Positions 10,039 to 40,260 of a stretch of DNA of 46,657 nt are shown in pieces. The notes under the pieces were generated by a model. It did no database searches, was not told the origin of the DNA, and worked only from the letters and a program-made list of their open reading frames with translations. This DNA comes from a virus, in UHGV virus genome UHGV-0180138, one strand, 5' to 3'. Numbering within the stretch: position 1 is the stretch's first letter; every line of letters starts with the position of its first letter. Made by a program: the position numbers and the translations under genes.

Positions 10039-10215
10039 ATGTCTTTTGATGATTACCAATGGCATGACGACTATGAACGAGAAAGCGTCATGCGTGCAAT
10101 GTGCAATGTATGCAGCACGAAGAAAGGAGGCTGTAACGAGTGCAACGAATGCTTAGATCATTGGCTAAGGGCCGGACACGCCGAAAGGCTGAACGAAACA
10201 GAGAATCAAAAATAA
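10039..10215 (+). CDS. small Cys-rich protein (58 aa), zinc-ribbon-like
   Basis: ATG with SD AAGGAGAG; CNVCSTKKGGCNECNEC; below track cutoff. Confidence 0.4.
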   Translation: MSFDDYQWHDDYERESVMRAMCNVCSTKKGGCNECNECLDHWLRAGHAERLNETENQK

Positions 10216-10229
10216 TCGGGGTGGTTTTT

Positions 10230-10835
10230 ATGCAAAACCCTAAAAAACCCATAAGACGCCGTTGCAAATGCTGCGGCGTTTTTTTTGAGCCTAAATATCA
10301 CAATCAAACGTGGTGCAGCGATGAATGTCTGGAAGAACTGAAGTTTGATCAGCTATGTCGCGACCGTGAGAAGGCTATGAAGGCTATGGAGCGGAAGAAA
10401 CGCCGGGATAGCCAGCGTGAAGAACGCAACCGGAAGCGTAAACAGTTAAATCCGCGTAGTTATTGGTTAAAGCAGGCGCAATCGGTATTTAATGCATATA
10501 TCCGCGAACGCGACGCGGGTCAGCCGTGTATATCTTGCGGGACTTATTACGGCGATCAGTGTTCCTGGGATGCCGGGCACTATAGAACGGTTGCTGCCGC
10601 AGGGCACCTTCGTTTTAACGAAGATAACTGCCATCGCCAATGCAGGCACTGCAACCAGACATTAGACGGCAACATAGCAGCTTATCGCCCTGCACTGATT
10701 AGAAAAATTGGCCTCGCCAGGGTGGAAGCGCTGGAGAACAACAACGATACGCATAAATGGACGATCGAAGAATGTAAAGAGATTATAAAAATCTATCAGG
10801 CGAAATTGGACGCCTTAAGGAGAAAGGCAGCATGA
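10230..10835 (+). CDS. ninG: NinG/Rap-family recombination endonuclease
   Basis: Strong similarity pattern to lambda NinG (CISCG...WDAGHYRT...LRFNE...HRWTIEECK); start at in-frame ATG 10230 within track ORF. Confidence 0.8.
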   Translation: MQNPKKPIRRRCKCCGVFFEPKYHNQTWCSDECLEELKFDQLCRDREKAMKAMERKKRRDSQREERNRKRKQLNPRSYWLKQAQSVFNAYIRERDAGQPCISCGTYYGDQCSWDAGHYRTVAAAGHLRFNEDNCHRQCRHCNQTLDGNIAAYRPALIRKIGLARVEALENNNDTHKWTIEECKEIIKIYQAKLDALRRKAA

Positions 10836-11239
10836 ATGAATATTCTTTTAGCCTGCCTTACCCGCCATCGAATAACCGCTATTACCGACATTCGCGCGGT
10901 TTTCACTATATCAGCAAAGTGGGGAAGGAATACCGGGAACAAGTAAAAGACATCATCGAATTATTAAATTTAGACATTAACCTATCTTGCCGACTGGCAA
11001 TCGCCATTTATGCCGCGCCGCCGGATAACCGGATCAGAGATCTGGATAATATCCCAAAATGCCTTTTTGACAGCCTTACTTACGCCGGATTCTGGACTGA
11101 CGACGGACAAATCGACTCAATAAAAATTGTACGCTGCCGGAAGGTAAAAGGCGGGCGATTGTTTATCAAGGTACGCGAACGCGGCGACCTGCTACCGGAT
11201 ATTGACGAATACGCGACCAATATGTGGAGTGAGCAATGA
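10832..11239 (+). CDS. rusA: Holliday junction resolvase RusA
   Basis: PYPPSNNRYYRHSRG and DLDNIPKCLFDSLTYAGFWTDDGQI match RusA. Confidence 0.85.
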   Translation: MNEYSFSLPYPPSNNRYYRHSRGFHYISKVGKEYREQVKDIIELLNLDINLSCRLAIAIYAAPPDNRIRDLDNIPKCLFDSLTYAGFWTDDGQIDSIKIVRCRKVKGGRLFIKVRERGDLLPDIDEYATNMWSEQ

Positions 11240-11418
11240 AAAACGAAGTTAAAGATCTGCAAATAGATATTCAGCGCGACGAACGTGATTTAGAGACGGT
11301 CCGACAAATCCAGGCTTTCCACATGCGCGAATTACTTGCGCTGAAAGAGTTTGAAAGAAAGCTGGTGCAATCCATTTCTGATCGTAAATGCCTTATTGCT
11401 CGTTACGGGGGGAAATAA
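11236..11418 (+). CDS. hypothetical protein
   Basis: 60-aa ORF. Confidence 0.45.
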   Translation: MKNEVKDLQIDIQRDERDLETVRQIQAFHMRELLALKEFERKLVQSISDRKCLIARYGGK

Positions 11419-12140
11419 TGAATTTAGAATCCATTCTGAAATTCCACTTCCCAAAATCACCGCGATTATCAGACGAAAGCCGGGGAACATCACCTGATGC
11501 ACTTAATACTACTGATGCGCTTACCGCCGCTGGTATGGCGCAATCGCGCGTAGAGCTTGGTTATAGCGCTTTTCTAGGGAAGATGGAACTATCACAAGCC
11601 GAAAAACACAGGGCCGTAGTTTTGCTTACAGAGCGTTTAAGAGCTATGGCAAAAGATTACGAATACGTCATGGAACTGGAGGAGAGCCAGCGCAATGATT
11701 TTATTATTCTTGTTGCCGTTTTCGCGTTTCGGGATTATTGCCAAAGCGCCGCGACGGAAAAAACTTGTATGGAGTGCGGCGGATATAAATTTACGTTTGA
11801 CGAATACGGAGAAAAACACCTTTGCAAAAAATGCAAGGGGCACGGGAAAGTTCGCAATCATTGTAAACAATGCAAGGGGCGCGGCGAGATACCGGATAAA
11901 ACAGCCAGCAATGCGGCAGAAATGCCAGTCTTCAAAACGTGCCAGCACTGTGGCGGGCGCGGGTACTCGCGTTTCCCGGTAGATCTCGTCCGGCAGGCTG
12001 TTAACCAGCTTGTTTTCCCGGTAAGCCGATCAACATGGTGGAAGAAATACAGGGTTTTCTATGAGGACGCCATAGCGGAGCTATTCAAAGAAGAAGCCCG
12101 CGCGGAAAGCGAAATCAAGCGAGTGACACGGGGTGAATAA
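11418..12140 (+). CDS. Q-like late regulator candidate with four CxxCxGxG zinc-finger repeats
   Basis: Follows ninG-rusA as Q does in lambdoid phages; CMECGG/CKKCKGHG/CKQCKGRG/CQHCGGRG; start ATG 11418 overlaps upstream stop; function inferred from position. Confidence 0.35.
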   Translation: MNLESILKFHFPKSPRLSDESRGTSPDALNTTDALTAAGMAQSRVELGYSAFLGKMELSQAEKHRAVVLLTERLRAMAKDYEYVMELEESQRNDFIILVAVFAFRDYCQSAATEKTCMECGGYKFTFDEYGEKHLCKKCKGHGKVRNHCKQCKGRGEIPDKTASNAAEMPVFKTCQHCGGRGYSRFPVDLVRQAVNQLVFPVSRSTWWKKYRVFYEDAIAELFKEEARAESEIKRVTRGE

Positions 12141-12340
12141 TGGATAAGCTGGAAATAAACGATCAGTTCGCTGTTATCTTATTTGAAGACAAAACAGGCG
12201 GCGCATGGTGTAAGAAAGTTACTGGTGCGGAAGCGCGTTTAATATTAGGTATGGCAAGCGCGTTAAATGAAGGCGAATTGCCTGCCATTCCTGTTAAGCC
12301 AGTGCATATCTATAAGCGGGGCGATGATGAAAATAATTAA
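12140..12340 (+). CDS. hypothetical protein
   Basis: 66-aa ORF. Confidence 0.45.
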   Translation: MDKLEINDQFAVILFEDKTGGAWCKKVTGAEARLILGMASALNEGELPAIPVKPVHIYKRGDDENN

Positions 12341-12674
12341 TATCGGGTGGTTATATTGCGAAAACTGCTACGAAGACGGCATGCTCGTTAAGACTGAAAA
12401 AGGTTGTGGCCTCTTTCTGTATCAAGGCGATAAGTTTGTTTGTCCGCGATGCGGTGGTAGTGGTGAGATAGAAATTATTGAAGATAACGCCGAAGCGCCA
12501 GAACCAGAGCGCATTGTCCTTGACGAAAAAATAAAAATTCATCCTGATTTATTACAGCAAATTATCGATCACGTATCGGCAGCAGCAATCTACAGCAATA
12601 ACAATTATCAGCGTGAAATTAACGTCAAACGTGCGATTGAGCAGTATTTCGAGGGTGATGATAATGAAGCCTAA
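12324..12674 (+). CDS. hypothetical protein with CxxC...CxxC zinc-ribbon motif
   Basis: CENC...CPRCGG. Confidence 0.5.
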   Translation: MMKIINIGWLYCENCYEDGMLVKTEKGCGLFLYQGDKFVCPRCGGSGEIEIIEDNAEAPEPERIVLDEKIKIHPDLLQQIIDHVSAAAIYSNNNYQREINVKRAIEQYFEGDDNEA

Positions 12675-12936
12675 ATTAAAAGAACATATTTACCGCCAGT
12701 TGGTTAACGAGCTTGCGGATACAGCACGATATTACGCCGGGACACAACAGCTACGCGGGCGGCTATCTTCGGTTGTTAACCGCTATATTGATGCCGGATG
12801 CCATCGCAAAGGTGAAATTACGATGGATGAAGCCATCAAGCGCCGGACGGCTGAATGGTCAGTTAGTAACACCGGATTGACCGGATACATTGAAGGCTAT
12901 AACGACTGTTTACAGGATCATAGCGATGGCAAGTAA
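12664..12936 (+). CDS. hypothetical protein
   Basis: ATG 12664 with SD GAGGGTG. Confidence 0.5.
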   Translation: MKPKLKEHIYRQLVNELADTARYYAGTQQLRGRLSSVVNRYIDAGCHRKGEITMDEAIKRRTAEWSVSNTGLTGYIEGYNDCLQDHSDGK

Positions 12937-13234
12937 AGATCTACATTTAAACCTGAAAGGAGAATACTTTTACGCTATCCGGGCGAGAAAGAAGGTGGAG
13001 GAATACCGACTTTATAATGACTACTGGCGTAAACGCCTGGAAGGGCGGGAATATGAACGCCTGATCATTAAGCTGGGCTATCCAGCCAGCCACGAAACAC
13101 ACCGGATCATAAACCTGCCTTATTTCGGGTATGAAGTGAAAACTATCACACATCCATTGTTCGGCCCTGATCCTGTAAAGGTATTCGCAATTAAGTGTGA
13201 TGTGAATTGGATGTTAAGGTGGGGTGAGCAATGA
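12926..13234 (+). CDS. hypothetical protein
   Basis: ATG 12926 within track ORF 12890-13234. Confidence 0.5.
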   Translation: MASKDLHLNLKGEYFYAIRARKKVEEYRLYNDYWRKRLEGREYERLIIKLGYPASHETHRIINLPYFGYEVKTITHPLFGPDPVKVFAIKCDVNWMLRWGEQ

Positions 13235-13446
13235 AAAAAGCTGGCCTGTCAATTAACCGCGTATTGTGCGGCGACGAAAACGAGATCCGCATAGAAATTA
13301 AATTTAGCACAGGTAAAGAGATAATCCTTTACACGACACCTGAAAACCTGACGCTGGCACTTACTGGTAAATCTGAAACGCCGTGCGACGTCAGGTTACG
13401 CAATATTGAAATCAAGGAATTAAGGAAGGGTAAAAATGAAAAGTAA
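13231..13446 (+). CDS. hypothetical protein
   Basis: 71-aa ORF. Confidence 0.45.
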   Translation: MKKAGLSINRVLCGDENEIRIEIKFSTGKEIILYTTPENLTLALTGKSETPCDVRLRNIEIKELRKGKNEK

Positions 13447-13654
13447 CCGTAAACGCCTGGTAAGGGCGTACGATAAAGCATTAAAGGCTTTTGATGACCT
13501 GCGACACAATAAGCGCCAGCGCCGCAAGTGGGCGCGAATGCTTGTTAATGAATGGCATTATCCTGATGCTGCCTTGATAGAAGGCGCACCGCCATTTACA
13601 CAGGAGCAAGCCGACGAAGTGGCTAACGATAACGTTTACTATATGATGTGGTGA
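13436..13654 (+). CDS. hypothetical protein, paralog A of tandem pair
   Basis: MKSNRKRLVRAYDKAL...DNVYYMMW; first 17 nt identical to next gene. Confidence 0.55.
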   Translation: MKSNRKRLVRAYDKALKAFDDLRHNKRQRRKWARMLVNEWHYPDAALIEGAPPFTQEQADEVANDNVYYMMW

Positions 13655-13658
13655 CAAT

Positions 13659-13895
13659 ATGAAAAGTAACCGTAAGCGCATGATAAGAGCATATGATAGA
13701 GCGTTAATCGAATTTAACGAACTATCACGCAGTAAGCGCCGCCGCAGACAATTCGCGCGACTTCTTTTTCATGTATGGCACGACGCTGATTTCTTTTTTG
13801 ATGCCAGACATATAACACAGGAAGATGCGGATAATATAGCTTACGATAACGTTTACTACATATTAAGAAGGTGGGAATATGAAAATAATCATTGA
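13659..13895 (+). CDS. hypothetical protein, paralog B of tandem pair
   Basis: MKSNRKRMIRAYDRAL...DNVYYILRRW. Confidence 0.55.
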   Translation: MKSNRKRMIRAYDRALIEFNELSRSKRRRRQFARLLFHVWHDADFFFDARHITQEDADNIAYDNVYYILRRWEYENNH

Positions 13896-14244
13896 TTACC
13901 TTTGCCATGTATTCAATACAATTTTCGGCTTTTATCAACAACCGTTTCTCAAAGAATGGGATTCGATGCTAAACGACATCCTCGACAAAGGATTAATAAT
14001 GGAGGTTGACGAGCTTACAATCAAAATTAATTACGAAGGTGATGAATACCAAATCTGGGTAGGTAATAGATGGTATGCATACGCTCATCTTTATTCGCTA
14101 AATGGAAAACTCATCCCTAGCAGACAGGAATTTAGACCGCGTTTCCGCACAATGCGCCGACTGCATGATCTGCATATGAATATATTTGAAGATCAGGAAG
14201 AACGGGAACTATTCAAAATTTACGGGGATAAATCATGGAGCTAA
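13879..14244 (+). CDS. hypothetical protein
   Basis: 121-aa ORF. Confidence 0.5.
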   Translation: MKIIIDYLCHVFNTIFGFYQQPFLKEWDSMLNDILDKGLIMEVDELTIKINYEGDEYQIWVGNRWYAYAHLYSLNGKLIPSRQEFRPRFRTMRRLHDLHMNIFEDQEERELFKIYGDKSWS

Positions 14245-14465
14245 AAATCTGGCAGGCTATCGACGTAGTTGATAACGAATTATCCATGTTTGCCACTGAT
14301 GGAAAGCGCGTGGTGATCGCTACATGGACGCATAACCATGATGATATTGTTTTTCGTCGCAAGGCTGCGGAGTGGCTTTTCTCTGACAACGGCTACACGA
14401 TGAATATCATGCAGCTTTCCAGAATGAAGGATGAAAAGCTGGTAGACAGCTACACAACTGCATAG
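14235..14465 (+). CDS. hypothetical protein
   Basis: 76-aa ORF. Confidence 0.45.
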   Translation: MELKIWQAIDVVDNELSMFATDGKRVVIATWTHNHDDIVFRRKAAEWLFSDNGYTMNIMQLSRMKDEKLVDSYTTA

Positions 14466-14475
14466 CGGGGTAAAT

Positions 14476-14709
14476 ATGCGTATCTATGAACACAAGCGGG
14501 ATAAAACCCGCTTTTTTGTTCGTGCTGGCGTGGCGTACCAGTATCACGACTGCGGATATATTGAGGCGCTTGCTTACGACCTTGATTTCGAACAAGAAAA
14601 AGAATGGTTTGACTTTAAGATTTACCGGAAGCGCAAACCGACGCGCGACGAGCGCCACGCTATCCGTGATTTCTTAATCAGCATTGACCGCTGGGAGGCA
14701 GAGGAATGA
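14476..14709 (+). CDS. hypothetical protein
   Basis: 77-aa ORF. Confidence 0.45.
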   Translation: MRIYEHKRDKTRFFVRAGVAYQYHDCGYIEALAYDLDFEQEKEWFDFKIYRKRKPTRDERHAIRDFLISIDRWEAEE

Positions 14710-14999
14710 AAACGAAGAAAACAGCAGATCAGAAAGCGTTAGTTATCGCTACAACGGACGTGTCGTTATTCACGAAGGGTGAAGAAATAGATCTTAAATT
14801 GCTTTTCGGTATGTTTGAGCCGCACGAAAAGCCGTGGTTTGTTCATGAAGATAAACAGGGAAATATGCGTGTCGTAGTGCCGGATAAAAACAGCGACATA
14901 TTTTTCGCTATTCCAGATCCGTTGCATGACGGTGAAGTGCTGGCGGTATTGTTGATTGCTGATGCTGTTACTTATAAGGGTAAAAAATATGAAAGTTAA
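14706..14999 (+). CDS. hypothetical protein
   Basis: 97-aa ORF. Confidence 0.5.
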   Translation: MKTKKTADQKALVIATTDVSLFTKGEEIDLKLLFGMFEPHEKPWFVHEDKQGNMRVVVPDKNSDIFFAIPDPLHDGEVLAVLLIADAVTYKGKKYES

Positions 15000-15216
15000 A
15001 TTCTTGCACGATCACGGATACCCGTCATTAAAACGCGTGGTAGGGGAAACGGTAGACGTTGTTCATTCTGATGATGTGACCTGCGTCATTATGGGTAAAG
15101 ACCTTATCGCTCACGGTGCTGATGATCACTACATTAACCCGGCGTGGTCATATACGTTTAGCCTGGGCGACTTCGTAGGCGATAAGGGTCGCGGTCTGCA
15201 AGTGGTCGAGGGTTAA
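14989..15216 (+). CDS. hypothetical protein
   Basis: ATG 14989 within track ORF. Confidence 0.45.
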   Translation: MKVKFLHDHGYPSLKRVVGETVDVVHSDDVTCVIMGKDLIAHGADDHYINPAWSYTFSLGDFVGDKGRGLQVVEG

Positions 15217-15220
15217 TATT

Positions 15221-15436
15221 ATGGACGTTTACGAGGATCTATACCTACAGACAAATAGCCGCACTTTTTATTTTCTGAAAAGCGGCGTCGTATATCGCAG
15301 CGACGACGGGGTGATAATGAAAGAGTGGTTATTTAAGCGTAAAGACCTACTTGATGATCTGGTTTTTGCCGGGATATTCCGTAAACGTCCGGCTAACCTG
15401 GAAGAAGAAATGCTGATCGACGAGGTATTAAAATGA
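15221..15436 (+). CDS. hypothetical protein
   Basis: 71-aa ORF. Confidence 0.45.
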   Translation: MDVYEDLYLQTNSRTFYFLKSGVVYRSDDGVIMKEWLFKRKDLLDDLVFAGIFRKRPANLEEEMLIDEVLK

Positions 15437-15684
15437 AAATCAAGGTAAGTTATTTCAGGGCGAAAGATAAGGCCACTGGACGGATGATGGCTATCCTGGT
15501 TAACGAAGCGAATTATATGTTTTTCCTTCAACCGTGGTGTATTGCCGATCTTAATGACGATTATCGACGTCACGCCGCGCGAAGTGCGGTAGGCATGAAA
15601 GGCTGGCAACCGCGCGACATGCTCAATTATTGCGACTGGAATCTGATAGCGAAATACACGGTCGATTATAAAGGGGTTTTCTAA
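15433..15684 (+). CDS. hypothetical protein
   Basis: 83-aa ORF. Confidence 0.5.
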   Translation: MKIKVSYFRAKDKATGRMMAILVNEANYMFFLQPWCIADLNDDYRRHAARSAVGMKGWQPRDMLNYCDWNLIAKYTVDYKGVF

Positions 15685-15890
15685 TGTATGTTCGATGCAC
15701 TGAATCAAAAACATTATGCTTTGAGGTTGGCGGAATATATACCGTAGATCACCTGACTGGTGATGAAAATAACATCCAATACATTAAAGACGATCACGGC
15801 GACGCGTGGCGCTATTGGGATTGTTACGCACGGGGACACGTTACCAGTCATTTCGGTACGGAAGCGATCGCGCGTTTTGTTAAATGGTAA
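15684..15890 (+). CDS. small protein, member 1 of four-gene tandem paralog family
   Basis: VRCTESKTLCFEVGGIYT...DDHGDAWRYW; shared pattern C-x-ES-K-x-x-F-x-x-G-x-Y ... D-x-x-G-x-x-W. Confidence 0.5.
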   Translation: MYVRCTESKTLCFEVGGIYTVDHLTGDENNIQYIKDDHGDAWRYWDCYARGHVTSHFGTEAIARFVKW

Positions 15891-15899
15891 GGGGTAAGC

Positions 15900-16151
15900 A
15901 TGAAGCATTTATATTTTGAGGTATTGCATACGCGCGACCGCAATATTTTTGAAGAAGGTAAGATCTATTGCGGCGTTCAACTACACGGCGCACCGGGCGG
16001 TGAGGCGATGGCGATAACTGGTGATGATGATAAGGTTTATTTTGCTTATGTCACACGCTTTCCACACACTGACAAGGTTTATTATCGCATCGTGCATGAC
16101 TTCCATGGCGTAGCTGTATTTTGTGACCGCGAAGGCAGTAAACCGGAATAG
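15900..16151 (+). CDS. small protein, member 2 of tandem paralog family
   Basis: More divergent; FEEGKIYCG ... GDDDKVYFAY. Confidence 0.45.
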   Translation: MKHLYFEVLHTRDRNIFEEGKIYCGVQLHGAPGGEAMAITGDDDKVYFAYVTRFPHTDKVYYRIVHDFHGVAVFCDREGSKPE

Positions 16152-16160
16152 GTGGTGGTT

Positions 16161-16421
16161 ATGAGTCGGAAACATAGATACCAGTGCACGTACTCACGAT
16201 GCGGCGCGTTTTTTAAGAATGGCAAGATCTACGAGGTTGGCGCGGCATTGGTTGACGCAAAGGATCAGGAATATATTCACGCTATCACTGACGACCAGGG
16301 CCAGTTATGGCGCTTTTATAAGATGGGGTATGGCACGGCGCTTGTTTATGCGCGTGCTGGTGGTGGTGCTTTTGCTGCATTTTCGTATGTAGGGGGTGTG
16401 GGAAATGATTTTAACGTGTAA
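16161..16421 (+). CDS. small protein, member 3 of tandem paralog family
   Basis: ATG 16161 after SD GGTGGTGG; CTYSRCGAFFKNGKIYEV ... DDQGQLWRFY. Confidence 0.5.
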   Translation: MSRKHRYQCTYSRCGAFFKNGKIYEVGAALVDAKDQEYIHAITDDQGQLWRFYKMGYGTALVYARAGGGAFAAFSYVGGVGNDFNV

Positions 16422-16623
16422 TGAGTCGAAATTAGGCTGTTTTGAGGAAGGCGCACAGTATACGGCTGAAAAACCAATGGGATTGTCCCCTAAATTTCCG
16501 TTTATCGTCGTGACTGACACTTACGGTCACTTATGGTATGCAGGGCCGCTAGGCGGTATTGGTCGTTATGTTGTCCGTAGTTGTGATGGGGCGATGAAAG
16601 TTACCTTTACGGAAGAAACATAA
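16405..16623 (+). CDS. small protein, member 4 of tandem paralog family
   Basis: ATG 16405 after SD GGGGGTG; LTCNESKLGCFEEGAQYT ... DTYGHLWYAG. Confidence 0.5.
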   Translation: MILTCNESKLGCFEEGAQYTAEKPMGLSPKFPFIVVTDTYGHLWYAGPLGGIGRYVVRSCDGAMKVTFTEET

Positions 16624-16641
16624 ATGTGATCTACCTCGCAA

Positions 16642-33226: not shown

Positions 33227-35572
33227 ATGGCTACCAGTGTAGGTACAATTTATTACGAAGTTGATGCAAAAACTGGTCAACTTCTCGTTGCACAACGACA
33301 GGCAGACCAGGCCTTTGACCGTATAGAGCGCGGCGCAAAACAGGCTGACCGCCAGGTAAACACCCTGAAAACATCCATCAAGGCACTGACCAGGGTTATC
33401 CATTTGCTAATTGCTGCGGAGGCTGTGCGCCAATTTATGGATATGGCGGAGCAAGCAAAAATGCTTCGCGTAAAAATCAAAATGCTTACGGGCGATGCGG
33501 AGTCCGCCGGACGGGTTTTCGACGGCCTGAAAGCAATATCCAGGGAAACGGGGCAGAGCCTGAAGGATACTGGCGAACTATGGCAGGGCCTGGCTATCTC
33601 ACTGAAGAACACGTCAGCTACGGAAGGGCAATTGCTTAACCTGGTTGGCACTATTCAGAAAATGGGGGCGTTAGGCGGCGCATCAGCGGAACAGATGTCT
33701 AACTCTATGCGCCAGTTCCGCCAGTCTATAGACGGCGGCGTGCTGCGTGCTGAAGAATTTAACAGCCTACTTGAAAACACCCCGACCATCGTACAAACAA
33801 TGGCCCGCCATATGGGATTATCAATGGGCCAGTTCCGCGCTGAAATGCTGGACGGCAAGATCACGGCAGAAAGGATGGTTAACGCAATCCAGGCGGCTAC
33901 GCAGGAAACAAACGAGCAGTTCGCGCAGTTGCCTCGCACATCCGGTATGGCTATCAATGAGCTTAAAGTCGAAATCATGGGCCTTGTTGAGCAGCTTGAT
34001 GATCTTTTCGGCGTATCAGATGGCGTAGTCTCAGCTATCGACTTGATCACAAAAGGCGTTAAGGGGTTAGGTGAGGGCGCTAAATTCGCTAAAACCTGCT
34101 TCGATACACTCAAAACGGCTGGTGGCGAATTCATCGACATGTTTGATGATGTGGCTGTGAAGGCTGGCGAGGTGGCAGAGAAGATCATCGCAATGGTGAC
34201 GCCAATCAAGGCGCTTATGGACGCTTATAAATGGATGAAGGAGGTTGTAGATAAGCGCAAGGAAGAACTAAATAACAATCCTACAAAAATGTTCGGACCG
34301 TTAGTAGGCCAGGTGATGACGCTTAAAAATGATCTCGATGCAGTTCGCAAGAAAGGTGAGGAAGCGAAAGAAGCGTTAACTGCACCAGATGACGGAACTA
34401 TTACCGGATTCGATAAGCCAGTGGACAAGCCTAAAAAGGGTAAGAAAACTGGCAGCAAGAAAAGCAAAGAGGATACGCTTGGTGACAAAGGCATAAGCGT
34501 TTCCGACATGTACAACAGAGACGCCGCCGCCATGCGCAAAGCGTTAGAGAACGGAAAAGCCATTGATGCTGCGTTCGCCCAGGGAAAAATAACCCTGCTT
34601 GAGTACCGCGCCGCTCAAAAGGGGATTGGCAAGGAACTGAAGGAAGAATTAGCACAGATTCCGGTAGATGAATTGCGTGATAAATGGTCGCAAATAGTTA
34701 GCCCGATGGACCAGCTAAAAGGCGAAGTTAACCCCATCCAGCAGGCACAAAATGAATGGGCCGTCCGTAAGCAAATGCTTATCGACCTGGGCGCTACCGA
34801 AGCGCAACAGAAACAGGAATTGTTAGCCTATGAGCAGCAGATCCGCGATCTGAAATGGGAGCAATGGCAGGCGCAAAGCCAGACAAACGGCCTGATCGGT
34901 GATTGCGTTAATGGCCTTAAAGGTGGTATGAGCAATGCGCTTGTTGGCCTGTTAAACGGCACTCAATCATTGAGTGATGTTTTTGCTAACTTAGGCAGCA
35001 ATATACTTGGGAATATCGGTAACAGACTTTCGGACATAGCTGCCAACTGGATAGCAGATCAAATCATGATGGAGACACAAAGCAAAGCCACGCAGGCCAG
35101 CACAACGGCAAGCGCGGTTGCCGCTCAGGGAAGCATTGCGGCGGCGGCGGCCCCAGCCGCGGCGGCAACTGCGGCATCAACTGGCGGCAGCTGGGCGGCG
35201 GCTGGTTCGGCGGCACTTACCGCGATCATGTCGCTGGCTACGTCAATTTTTGGTGGCGGGCGTTATAATGGTGGTTCGGTTAACGGTGGTAGCCTGTATC
35301 GCGTAGGGGAACACGGTAAGCCGGAATTATTCCAGACTAATAACGGTCGTCAGTATATGATACCTGGCGAAAATGGCAGAGTAATTCCTAATCGTGACAT
35401 TGGCGGCGGCGGTGGCATCAACATGCCAGTGACCATCAACGTCCAGACCACGAACGGATTCAGCGACGATGACAGCCGCAGACTTGAGCAGACGATGGAA
35501 CGTGTAGCTATGAAGATGATAACAAGGGAATCTCAAAGACCGGGCGGAATGTTGCAACCGCGCCGCAAATAA
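33227..35572 (+). CDS. tail tape measure protein
   Basis: 781 aa, largely alpha-helical with Gly/Ala-rich C-terminal part; precedes M-L-K-I-J block; SD GAGG. Confidence 0.85.
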   Translation: MATSVGTIYYEVDAKTGQLLVAQRQADQAFDRIERGAKQADRQVNTLKTSIKALTRVIHLLIAAEAVRQFMDMAEQAKMLRVKIKMLTGDAESAGRVFDGLKAISRETGQSLKDTGELWQGLAISLKNTSATEGQLLNLVGTIQKMGALGGASAEQMSNSMRQFRQSIDGGVLRAEEFNSLLENTPTIVQTMARHMGLSMGQFRAEMLDGKITAERMVNAIQAATQETNEQFAQLPRTSGMAINELKVEIMGLVEQLDDLFGVSDGVVSAIDLITKGVKGLGEGAKFAKTCFDTLKTAGGEFIDMFDDVAVKAGEVAEKIIAMVTPIKALMDAYKWMKEVVDKRKEELNNNPTKMFGPLVGQVMTLKNDLDAVRKKGEEAKEALTAPDDGTITGFDKPVDKPKKGKKTGSKKSKEDTLGDKGISVSDMYNRDAAAMRKALENGKAIDAAFAQGKITLLEYRAAQKGIGKELKEELAQIPVDELRDKWSQIVSPMDQLKGEVNPIQQAQNEWAVRKQMLIDLGATEAQQKQELLAYEQQIRDLKWEQWQAQSQTNGLIGDCVNGLKGGMSNALVGLLNGTQSLSDVFANLGSNILGNIGNRLSDIAANWIADQIMMETQSKATQASTTASAVAAQGSIAAAAAPAAAATAASTGGSWAAAGSAALTAIMSLATSIFGGGRYNGGSVNGGSLYRVGEHGKPELFQTNNGRQYMIPGENGRVIPNRDIGGGGGINMPVTINVQTTNGFSDDDSRRLEQTMERVAMKMITRESQRPGGMLQPRRK

Positions 35573-39055: not shown

Positions 39056-39787
39056 ATGGGGATGGAAGACAAAATGTCGCGTTATGCCGCCGCGCATCCG
39101 TTTGAGGAAGTTTGCGGACTTGTAATAGATAACGAGTATTTTTACCCGTGCGCTAACGTGTCTGAAACACCTTACAACAGCTTCAAGATTTCGCCGGACG
39201 ATTACATCAAAGCGGACGAATTGGGCGTTATAACCGCCGTTTTCCACTCCCACGTTGGTGATATTCCTGTATTGTCAGCGCGGGATCGACAGCAACAGGT
39301 TATTTCCGGGCTACCCTGGTTTTTATATTCCGGCGGCAAGATCAGGAAATTCCGTCCGGTTGCGCACCTGCTAGGCCGTAAATTCGTACACGGAACGACA
39401 GACTGTTACGCGCTTTTCCGCGACGCATATCACCTTTGCGGTGTAGATCTGCCTGACTTCGAGCGCCTTGATGGCTGGTGGCTTCGCGGTGAAAACCTGT
39501 ATTTAAAAAACCTGCCATTGAACGGGTTTTATCAGGTTGATGCGCAAAGCATACAGCCTGGTGATGTGATCATTCGCCAGCCATTCAAAGGCGCTGACCC
39601 GTGTCACGCAATGATTTACCTGGGTGATAACACGGTTTTGCATCATGACCATGCCGGATTATTAAGCCGCCGCGAGCAAATGCGGCCTGCTTATGTTCGA
39701 CAAACGCATTCAATATGGAGATCTGATAAATGCTCAAATTTAGATTTACGGGCAATCTTCGAAGATATTACGGCAAAGTGTGTTTAA
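39056..39787 (+). CDS. tail assembly protein K (lambda gpK-like, JAB/MPN plus NlpC/P60)
   Basis: EVCGLV...HSH...LPWFLY...KFRPVAHLLGRKFVHGTTDCYALFRDAYHLCG...PGDV...H parallels lambda gpK; start ATG 39056 right after L stop. Confidence 0.85.
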   Translation: MGMEDKMSRYAAAHPFEEVCGLVIDNEYFYPCANVSETPYNSFKISPDDYIKADELGVITAVFHSHVGDIPVLSARDRQQQVISGLPWFLYSGGKIRKFRPVAHLLGRKFVHGTTDCYALFRDAYHLCGVDLPDFERLDGWWLRGENLYLKNLPLNGFYQVDAQSIQPGDVIIRQPFKGADPCHAMIYLGDNTVLHHDHAGLLSRREQMRPAYVRQTHSIWRSDKCSNLDLRAIFEDITAKCV

Positions 39788-40260
39788 ACGTTGATACGCC
39801 AGCGCAAGGACTTGGCTTATTGGTTGCGCAGAATTATGAGTTCAAGAAGGCGTTTTTAAGCACCCCATTACGCTTACGAATTGCCGGGAAAGATTATGAC
39901 GAAAACACCGCGCCCGCAGCGGTTAATAGTAAATACCCGGATGGGACTACCGTCATTGTTGCGCCAGTAGTTGAAGGCGGTATCGCTGGGATTGGTGTTG
40001 TAGGTTGGATCTTGATTGGTGTTTCAGTGGTTAGCGTTGCGTTCTCAATCTTTATGTCACGCAACATGAAGATAAAAACATCAGCAGAAAGCGCACAAGA
40101 TAACACCATAACGAACAACACCTACACCAGCGTTGAAAACAAGGTAGGACAAGGCAGGCCAGTGCCAATCCTATTAGGTGAGATGAAAATAGGTTCAAAC
40201 GTCGGATCGTTAGGCATAGACACAAGTAACAACAAAGACGCCCTAGACGTTGTAAGTTAA
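39730..40260 (+). CDS. tail assembly protein I (lambda gpI-like)
   Basis: RIAGKDY...PDG..V...GQGRPVPILLGEMKIGS parallels lambda gpI. Confidence 0.75.
   Translation: MLKFRFTGNLRRYYGKVCLNVDTPAQGLGLLVAQNYEFKKAFLSTPLRLRIAGKDYDENTAPAAVNSKYPDGTTVIVAPVVEGGIAGIGVVGWILIGVSVVSVAFSIFMSRNMKIKTSAESAQDNTITNNTYTSVENKVGQGRPVPILLGEMKIGSNVGSLGIDTSNNKDALDVVS

Follow-up and report, generated by a model that had tools for sequence, protein, structure and literature searches.

Four tandem paralogous genes of a temperate Escherichia coli phage encode a new family of small proteins with a predicted Gp54-like barrel fold

Introduction

Gp54 of phage Bas11 (Gp54-Bas11) is a non-essential protein of 66 amino acids, classified in Pfam as PF25180, ‘Phage antiviral trigger protein Gp54’. 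It makes direct contact with CapRel-SJ46, through the pseudo-zinc-finger domain with which this protein senses it (Zhang et al., Nature 2024, PMC11578894). The fold of Gp54-Bas11 has been called very rare, its close homologues fail to activate CapRel-SJ46, and the authors suggested that it may inhibit another defence system (PMC11578894). DUF7244 (PF23896), a member of the SH3 clan, is a shell gene that 188 of 522 Drexlerviridae possess, in every case near the lysis cassette, and a lysis-assisting role was proposed from this co-localisation alone (Eremina et al. 2026, PMC13164509). Here, these two proteins are compared with the products of an array of four small genes (positions 15684-16623) in the UHGV virus genome UHGV-0180138. 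The whole stretch analysed, 46,657 nucleotides in length, is referred to as the window.

The window represents a mEpimmI-type (mEp021-like) temperate E. coli phage, the closest DNA relatives of which are the phages MagusPhagus and mEp044 (83-88% identity) and prophages in 35 of 5426 complete E. coli genomes. The mEpimmI group was described by Negrete-Mendez et al. 2025 (PMC11893012); that paper places most flexible genes in a ‘regulation cluster’ and calls them hypothetical. The passages searched mention no paralogous family, fold or copy-number variation, and the strings ‘paralog’ and ‘duplicat’ have 0 occurrences in them. Current annotation gives the genes of the array no name beyond ‘hypothetical protein’.

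Results

The array consists of four diverged paralogues

A preliminary description of the window had pointed to four small paralogous genes starting at 15684, 15900, 16161 and 16405. All four are open reading frames (ORFs) on the + strand, located between the genes for the Q antiterminator and the holin:

15684..15890, + strand: ORF of paralogue A, 68 amino acids, subtype A, phrog_31142
15900..16151, + strand: ORF of paralogue B, 83 amino acids, most divergent of the four, without the conserved Cys and Trp
16161..16421, + strand: ORF of paralogue C, 86 amino acids from the ATG at 16161 (89 amino acids from the GTG at 16152)
16405..16623, + strand: ORF of paralogue D, 72 amino acids from the ATG at 16405 (75 amino acids from the GTG at 16396)

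Each of the four ATG codons is preceded by a G-rich Shine-Dalgarno (SD) site, which reads AGGTGGTGG in paralogue C and GGGGGTGTGGGA in paralogue D. The start of A overlaps the stop of the upstream gene (TAATG), A/B and B/C are each separated by 9 nt, and C/D overlap by 17 nt. The ratio of nonsynonymous to synonymous substitution rates (dN/dS) within each type ranges from 0.12 to 0.18 (6-10 orthologues per type from related loci; 0.12 for C and 0.15 for D), so the ORFs of the array are real coding genes under purifying selection. The minus-strand ORFs over the array (15268-15714, 15714-15908, 15981-16175 and 16305-16520) were judged spurious, because selection and homology both track the + frame.

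The four proteins share low pairwise identities of 19-34%. BLASTP against a database of 25 ORFs gave E-values of 4.7e-6 for A-D, 3e-5 for A-C and 0.018 for B-C, phmmer E-values were similar, and the similarity between B and A was undetectable in pairwise comparison. In a leave-one-out test, hidden Markov models (HMMs) were built without one subtype and searched against the 390 window ORFs of at least 35 amino acids. The left-out paralogue was regained in each case, at 4e-19 for A, 5e-13 for D, 5e-11 for C and 4e-5 for B, with the best non-member at E ~0.005-0.04. In addition, phrog_31142, which was built independently, represents A (1.6e-40) and also matches C at 5e-5. The low identities and the undetectable B-A similarity might suggest that there is no real family, and that chance or compositional similarity, or even non-coding ORFs, account for the resemblance. 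Against this stand the leave-one-type-out E-values of 4e-5 to 4e-19, the dN/dS values of 0.12-0.18, the consistent SD sites and the confident, concordant structural models of the two most distant members, and this explanation is rejected as next to impossible. Judged from their sequences, the four genes are shown to be diverged tandem paralogues of one small-protein family.

The shared residues are significant. The core motif given in the preliminary description is right in spirit, with slightly incorrect spacing: the shared core reads C-x-[EY]-S-...-F-x-x-G-x-x-Y, followed by D-x-G-x-x-W, and B keeps only F-x-x-G-x-x-Y. F13 and Y19 are invariant, G16 and F65 are near-invariant, and both the Cys of strand 1, which is widely conserved, and the D-x-G-x-x-W hairpin stand out in the alignment. 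The loops, the β1-β2 segment and the C-termini vary between subtypes. No conserved basic patch and no obvious catalytic constellation were found in the alignment. Since the conserved columns (F13, G16, Y19, D-x-G-x-x-W, F65) are mostly hydrophobic-core or turn positions plus one Cys, and the loops and termini are variable, the proteins look like binding scaffolds rather than enzymes.

The proteins are predicted to adopt the fold of Gp54-Bas11

The AlphaFold2 model of paralogue A, calculated from a 20-sequence family alignment with no templates, has a predicted local distance difference test score (pLDDT) of 88.2 and a predicted template modelling score (pTM) of 0.73. It contains six strands and a 9-residue β1-β2 loop. 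Paralogue B, despite being the most divergent, was likewise modelled as a six-stranded barrel (pLDDT 81.9). No signal peptide or transmembrane segment was found in A-D, and their grand average of hydropathy (GRAVY) is negative. Each protein is predicted to be a soluble, cytoplasmic, six-stranded SH3-like β-barrel of ~70-85 amino acids with a long β1-β2 loop. The models reproduce the six-stranded barrel and the long β1-β2 loop of the Gp54-Bas11 crystal structure (PDB 9AXB), and the family is predicted with good confidence to share this rare fold.

At the sequence level, neither A-D nor 22 family members were matched by PF25180 (gathering score 27 bits) at E <= 1, whereas Bas11 gp54 as positive control scored 116 bits (6e-34). 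The family profile found no match among the sequences of the PDB. As the sequence and profile comparisons are null, the link to Gp54 is at the fold level only. Foldseek against BFVD returned many small uncharacterised proteins with TM scores of 0.7-0.83, several per genome in some phages (for example, three in phage NBD2); most of these come from phages that we take to be T1-like. The features of PliC/MliC-type periplasmic lysozyme inhibitors, namely a signal peptide or lipobox and an eight-stranded barrel, are absent from the family.

An SH3-like fold is also compatible with small nucleic-acid-binding barrels (KOW/Sm/Tudor-like), which could adjust antitermination, translation or the stability of RNA in these Nus-dependent phages. 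The group needs Nus factors and carries N-like and Q antiterminators, and paralogue C is basic, with an isoelectric point (pI) of 8.95. However, A, B and D are mildly acidic (pI 5.2-6.0), the family has no conserved basic patch, and its genes are dispensable and variable in copy number, unlike core regulatory genes. Such a function is considered improbable.

Gene-by-gene gain and loss in related phages

The array is bordered by a conserved gene on the left and a terminator on the right:

15433..15684, + strand: left-flank gene, 83 amino acids, phrog_38609 (9e-58), not a member of the family
16647..16680, + strand: intrinsic-terminator hairpin with a 15-bp stem and a U-rich 3′ side (RNA fold -28.3 kcal/mol, z -3.4)

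All relatives, mEp021 among them, carry DNA homologous to the left-flank gene as far as a breakpoint at 15686-15692. The hairpin corresponds to the terminator T7 annotated in mEp044 and forms the conserved right edge of the array, lying directly 3′ of the last paralogue, whichever that is (as in L006 and L011).

Between these borders, the number of genes varies widely. The family HMM detected 0 (mEp021), 1 (L006 and L007), 2, 3, 4 or 5 tandem copies in 18 related loci, falling into ~10 subtypes with at least 60% identity within a type, in agreement with the earlier proposal of local amplification with divergence. One subtype, H, is dispersed and adjoins RusA in two loci, and the maximum observed is five tandem copies plus one dispersed copy. 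When every ORF of 17 loci was searched iteratively with HMMs, the search ended with the tandem array and the one dispersed subtype; the Q-holin region as a whole thus does not form one superfamily. Relatives carry separate genes and not a single gene, with occasional fusion or deletion chimeras.

Nucleotide homology breaks at gene boundaries, at 15684-15692, 15888-15895, 16150, 16616-16620 and 16715-16720. Three loci (L005, L009 and L010) contain A and C+D but lack B, L006 contains A followed directly by the terminator, and in L001, L012 and L015 a 45%-identical subtype replaces A. mEp021 lacks the interval 15692-16865 entirely. From the position of the breakpoints, the genes behave as individually swappable cassettes. 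The viability of phage mEp021, which has no part of the block, shows the block to be dispensable. Moreover, frameshifted copies (P0017, P0027, P0030, P0038 and P0048) and in-frame fusions to downstream genes (P0019, P0043, P0056, P0041, P0031 and P0067) were found in the databases. In four of the fusions (P0019, P0043, P0056 and P0041), all from related E. coli prophages, the N-terminus comes from the family and the C-terminus from a homologue of ORF 17448-17771, with three different junctions, or from one of ORF 16874-17188, and these sequences show recurrent deletions across the array and the downstream genes. The frameshifted and fused variants in prophages also point to dispensability. In these genome comparisons the block is shown to be a dispensable, rapidly reshuffled accessory module.

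The family has a narrow distribution

Of 5.8e9 proteins covered by two word-indexed profile searches, only 43-45 matched. All of them are orthologues of the family subtypes, and every match with a named source belongs to E. coli or its (pro)phages. An exhaustive hmmsearch of 1.84e9 cluster representatives yielded no other convincing full-length relative, and no relative was found when one genome per GTDB species was scanned. The exceptions in the hmmsearch were a metagenomic protein of 270 amino acids (P0051, see below) and repeat proteins in which the match was confined to the D-G-x-V-W hairpin. At the level of sequence, the family is shown to be confined to mEpimmI-type (mEp021-like) temperate E. 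coli phages.

Three of the repeat proteins, P0045, P0047 and P0052, were considered as relatives and set aside as probable motif convergence, since only the D-G-x-V-W hairpin of their lectin-/propeller-like repeats was matched. They are long proteins with five to seven repeats of ...F-x-T-G-x-D-G-x-V-W/Y-H-R....

Relation to DUF7244 and to the lysis genes

Scans of A-D against Pfam, PHROGs, PADLOC and NCBIfam returned no above-threshold family except the uninformative phrog_31142, which represents A. Below threshold, A resembles DUF7244 at 19.4 bits (E 1.2e-3; gathering threshold 27 bits), and no match to this model was found for B, C, D or the other subtypes, with the positive control bas11_0041 at 92.5 bits. 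In hhalign, the family profile matched an alignment of Bas11 gp41-type DUF7244 proteins with a probability of 53% and an E-value of 1.3e-4 (38% identity over 39 columns), this alignment being shallow (75-93% identity). The pattern common to both is K-C-x-E-x-S...G-x-x-Y...I-K-D-x-x-G. A related pattern, C-x-D-x-S-G-R-K-x-L-x-x-G-K-x-Y...I-x-D-D-K-G, occurs as four fused repeats in the 270-amino-acid protein P0051 (L019, 239-1051), which matches DUF6501 (1e-10) and DUF7244 (9e-6) and is marginally significant against the family profile (hhalign probability 61%, E 8e-5). P0051 is encoded on a metagenome contig of 1.4 kb with no informative context.

The positions of the array and the lysis genes in the window are as follows:

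10140-10835: NinG
10832-11239: RusA
11388-12140: Q antiterminator (PF03589)
18498-18698: HP1-family holin
3′ of the HP1-family holin: lysozyme and Rz

The preliminary description had placed the array in a ‘pre-lysis’ region. The array does lie between Q and the holin, and the designation is positional only: from the array end at 16623 to the holin start at 18498 there are ~1.9 kb with ~9 ORFs and an intrinsic terminator. The Q-to-holin interval as a whole (12140-18498) spans ~6.3 kb and contains ~28 small + strand ORFs, compared with ~2.0 kb and 8 ORFs in mEp021.

This position and the DUF7244 match raise the question of whether the proteins are lysis accessories, that is, SH3 proteins related to DUF7244 that would modulate the endolysin, the holin or cell-wall interactions late in infection. 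Both the score of A (E 1.2e-3) and the hhalign result favour this explanation, as do the membership of DUF7244 in the SH3 clan, its constant proximity to the Drexlerviridae lysis cassette where it is present (PMC13164509) and the location of the array within the Q-holin interval. On the other hand, the lysis role of DUF7244 is itself a co-localisation hypothesis (PMC13164509), the match of A is below the gathering threshold (19.4 versus 27 bits) with B, C and D unmatched, and a terminator and ~9 ORFs over ~1.9 kb separate the array from the holin. Furthermore, mEp021 has the same type of holin-lysozyme-Rz cassette without any array, the proteins have no export signal, and four to five diverged paralogues are hard to explain for one uniform peptidoglycan or endolysin target. 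A lysis-accessory function is therefore regarded as unlikely.

Transcription signals in the Q-holin interval

The stop codon of Q overlaps the ATG of the following ORF (TAATG at 12140), leaving no intergenic room for a lambda-style late promoter directly after Q, and none was found when such a promoter was looked for there. In this region, the sequence at 14383-14410 (+) is the best match to a sigma-70-like promoter (10/12). A strong terminator-like hairpin with a T-run follows ~85 nt 3′ of it at 14494-14513 (+), inside ORF 14476-14709. This arrangement is reminiscent of a promoter-plus-terminator (pR′/tR′-like) unit, though it lies within coding sequence. A GC-rich hairpin with a T-run is present at 18455-18473 (+), 25 nt 5′ of the holin start. 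From its position, we take it to be the probable counterpart of the mEp021 terminator t5/TERM_5, just upstream of the holin, which in mEp021 is listed as experimentally demonstrated.

Another explanation is that the array consists of prophage-expressed ‘moron’ genes, which would aid the lysogen (for example, by superinfection exclusion or as fitness factors) and not lytic growth. The genes are accessory, variable and terminator-bounded like many morons, and they are found mostly in prophages, related ones being present in 35 of 5426 complete E. coli genomes. However, promoter prediction for the + strand gave no sigma-70-like promoter within the array or immediately 5′ of it, tight translational packing joins the array to the preceding genes of its operon, and the frameshifted copies, which are common in prophages, argue against strong selection in the lysogen. 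A moron function seems to be a long shot.

Other duplications in the interval

The preliminary description had also reported a duplicated pair at 13436-13895, and the two ORFs indeed share 53% identity (E 1e-24) and are both assigned to phrog_8758. This pair and a further ORF with family features are listed here:

13436-13654 and 13659-13895, + strand: duplicated pair, 72 and 78 amino acids, phrog_8758 (2e-25 and 1e-23)
17755..18009, + strand: ORF of 84 amino acids, phrog_25234 (HMM E 0.005-0.045)

The pair matches only the C-terminal half (positions 71-151) of phrog_8758, is basic (pI ~9.7) and occurs in one or two copies in relatives; by sequence comparison it is unrelated to the four-gene family. 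ORF 17755-18009 has an N-terminal half with the pattern F-x-x-G-x-x-Y...DDDGD, followed by an extremely acidic tail (pI 4.05, net charge ~-17). Two independent chimeras, P0031 (A::17755) and P0067 (G::17755), are both joined exactly at the DDxGD motif, where A and ORF 17755 share the 8-nt microhomology ACGGCGAC. This ORF may be a degenerate fifth member of the family. It and ORF 14706 gave marginal HMM matches only, and three ORFs suspected by eye (16874, 17175 and 17448) were supported as members by neither HMM nor phmmer searches.

ORFs 14476-14709 and 15221-15436 (+) match each other at a phmmer E-value of 1.3e-3 among 25 ORFs and may represent a third pair of diverged paralogues in the Q-holin interval. 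The mEp021 homologue of ORF 15221-15436 (gp41) is annotated as ‘virion structural protein’ from mass spectrometry.

Discussion

The array is best described as a set of dispensable accessory modules, which would bind host, defence or competitor-phage proteins stoichiometrically in the course of lytic development. As a whole, this statement has in our estimate an even chance of being correct; our confidence in its structural and evolutionary part is much higher. In the proposed mechanism, the proteins would act stoichiometrically as protein-binding modules, and in lytic growth each paralogue would have its own partner among the proteins of the host, of its defences or of competing phages; the independent gain and loss of several diverged copies suggests such a difference in targets. 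The proteins could then be inhibitors or triggers of bacterial immune sensors, as with Gp54-Bas11. From the dispensability of the genes, the turnover of the cassettes and the fold match to Gp54-Bas11, we infer a host-interaction or counter-defence role, in line with the preliminary description.

Several points weigh against this role. The fold match is a comparison of predicted models with one crystal structure, and hhalign comparisons with Gp54-Bas11, for which both the single sequence and an alignment of 12 sequences were used, gave probabilities of 0.36% and 0.2%. Gp54-Bas11 is itself known only as the trigger of CapRel-SJ46 and not by its native role. The sole sequence-level link outside the family is the one to DUF7244, a proposed lysis accessory. 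Neither PADLOC (anti-phage defence) nor the named families of NCBIfam matched A-D. Phage accessory genes in general typically turn over as cassettes, a behaviour that points to no particular target. Finally, promoter prediction placed none within the array.

A bolder extension of the host-interaction reading is conceivable, if rather unlikely. The array could be a ‘battery’ of diversified Gp54-fold barrels, each binding, and so inhibiting or decoying, a different immune sensor (for example, CapRel-type zinc-finger-like domains). The gain and loss of cassettes would then record an arms race of temperate phages against E. coli defence systems, and Gp54-Bas11, DUF7244 and the present family would form one widespread superfamily of immune-modulating mini-barrels.

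The fold class and the amplification of accessory genes in phages were already known. New are the sequence family, its predicted Gp54-like fold, the possible bridge to DUF7244 and the gene-by-gene dynamics of the cassettes. Direct sensing by a bacterial immune protein is known for very few phage proteins, of which Gp54-Bas11 is one. The fold of Gp54-Bas11 is here predicted in a sequence-unrelated family that is amplified to four to five copies and shuffled gene by gene in common gut E. coli prophages. The ~10 natural variants provide a test set for the benefit that Gp54-like barrels bring to the phage and for the triggering or blocking of defence systems. If the proteins were lysis accessories instead, this would settle the hypothesis on standalone SH3 proteins in phages of Gram-negative bacteria.

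Comparison with known systems

Bas11 (L004) carries both comparators, at 33759-33929 and 39780-39980. Its gp41 is a DUF7244 standalone SH3 protein encoded directly 5′ of the holin, its Gp54 sits in a minus-strand block of small hypothetical genes, and no profile similarity was found between Gp54 and DUF7244.

The array shares its phage group and genome region with the mEpimmI ‘regulation cluster’ (PMC11893012). The proteins resemble the repeats of P0051 in the pattern C-x-x-S...G-K-x-Y...I-x-D-D-x-G, but they are encoded by four separate genes, whereas P0051 has four domains in one polypeptide. Like DUF7244, they would be small standalone SH3-like barrels, and they are encoded by an accessory (shell) gene type upstream of lysis genes, with a weak, consistent resemblance over β1-β4 that includes the Cys of strand 1, the G-x-x-Y strand and the D-x-x-G hairpin. 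DUF7244, however, has 56 amino acids, was described as having a minimal SH3 topology and is a single-copy gene directly before the holin. The window proteins have 68-86 amino acids and six strands, and their four-gene array lies 1.9 kb 5′ of the holin, so that none of its genes immediately adjoins the holin/lysis cassette as DUF7244 does.

With Gp54-Bas11, the family shares the character of a small, soluble, non-essential phage protein, the six-stranded barrel with a prominent β1-β2 loop in its models, and a gene that lies among other small hypothetical genes in an E. coli siphovirus genome. Gp54 is a single-copy gene of a virulent T1-like phage, on the opposite side of the genome from the lysis genes, whereas the window contains four tandem copies in a temperate mEpimmI phage. 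The family is filed under neither PF25180 nor PF23896, and it is a new sequence family of the SH3-like/Gp54-like barrel class.

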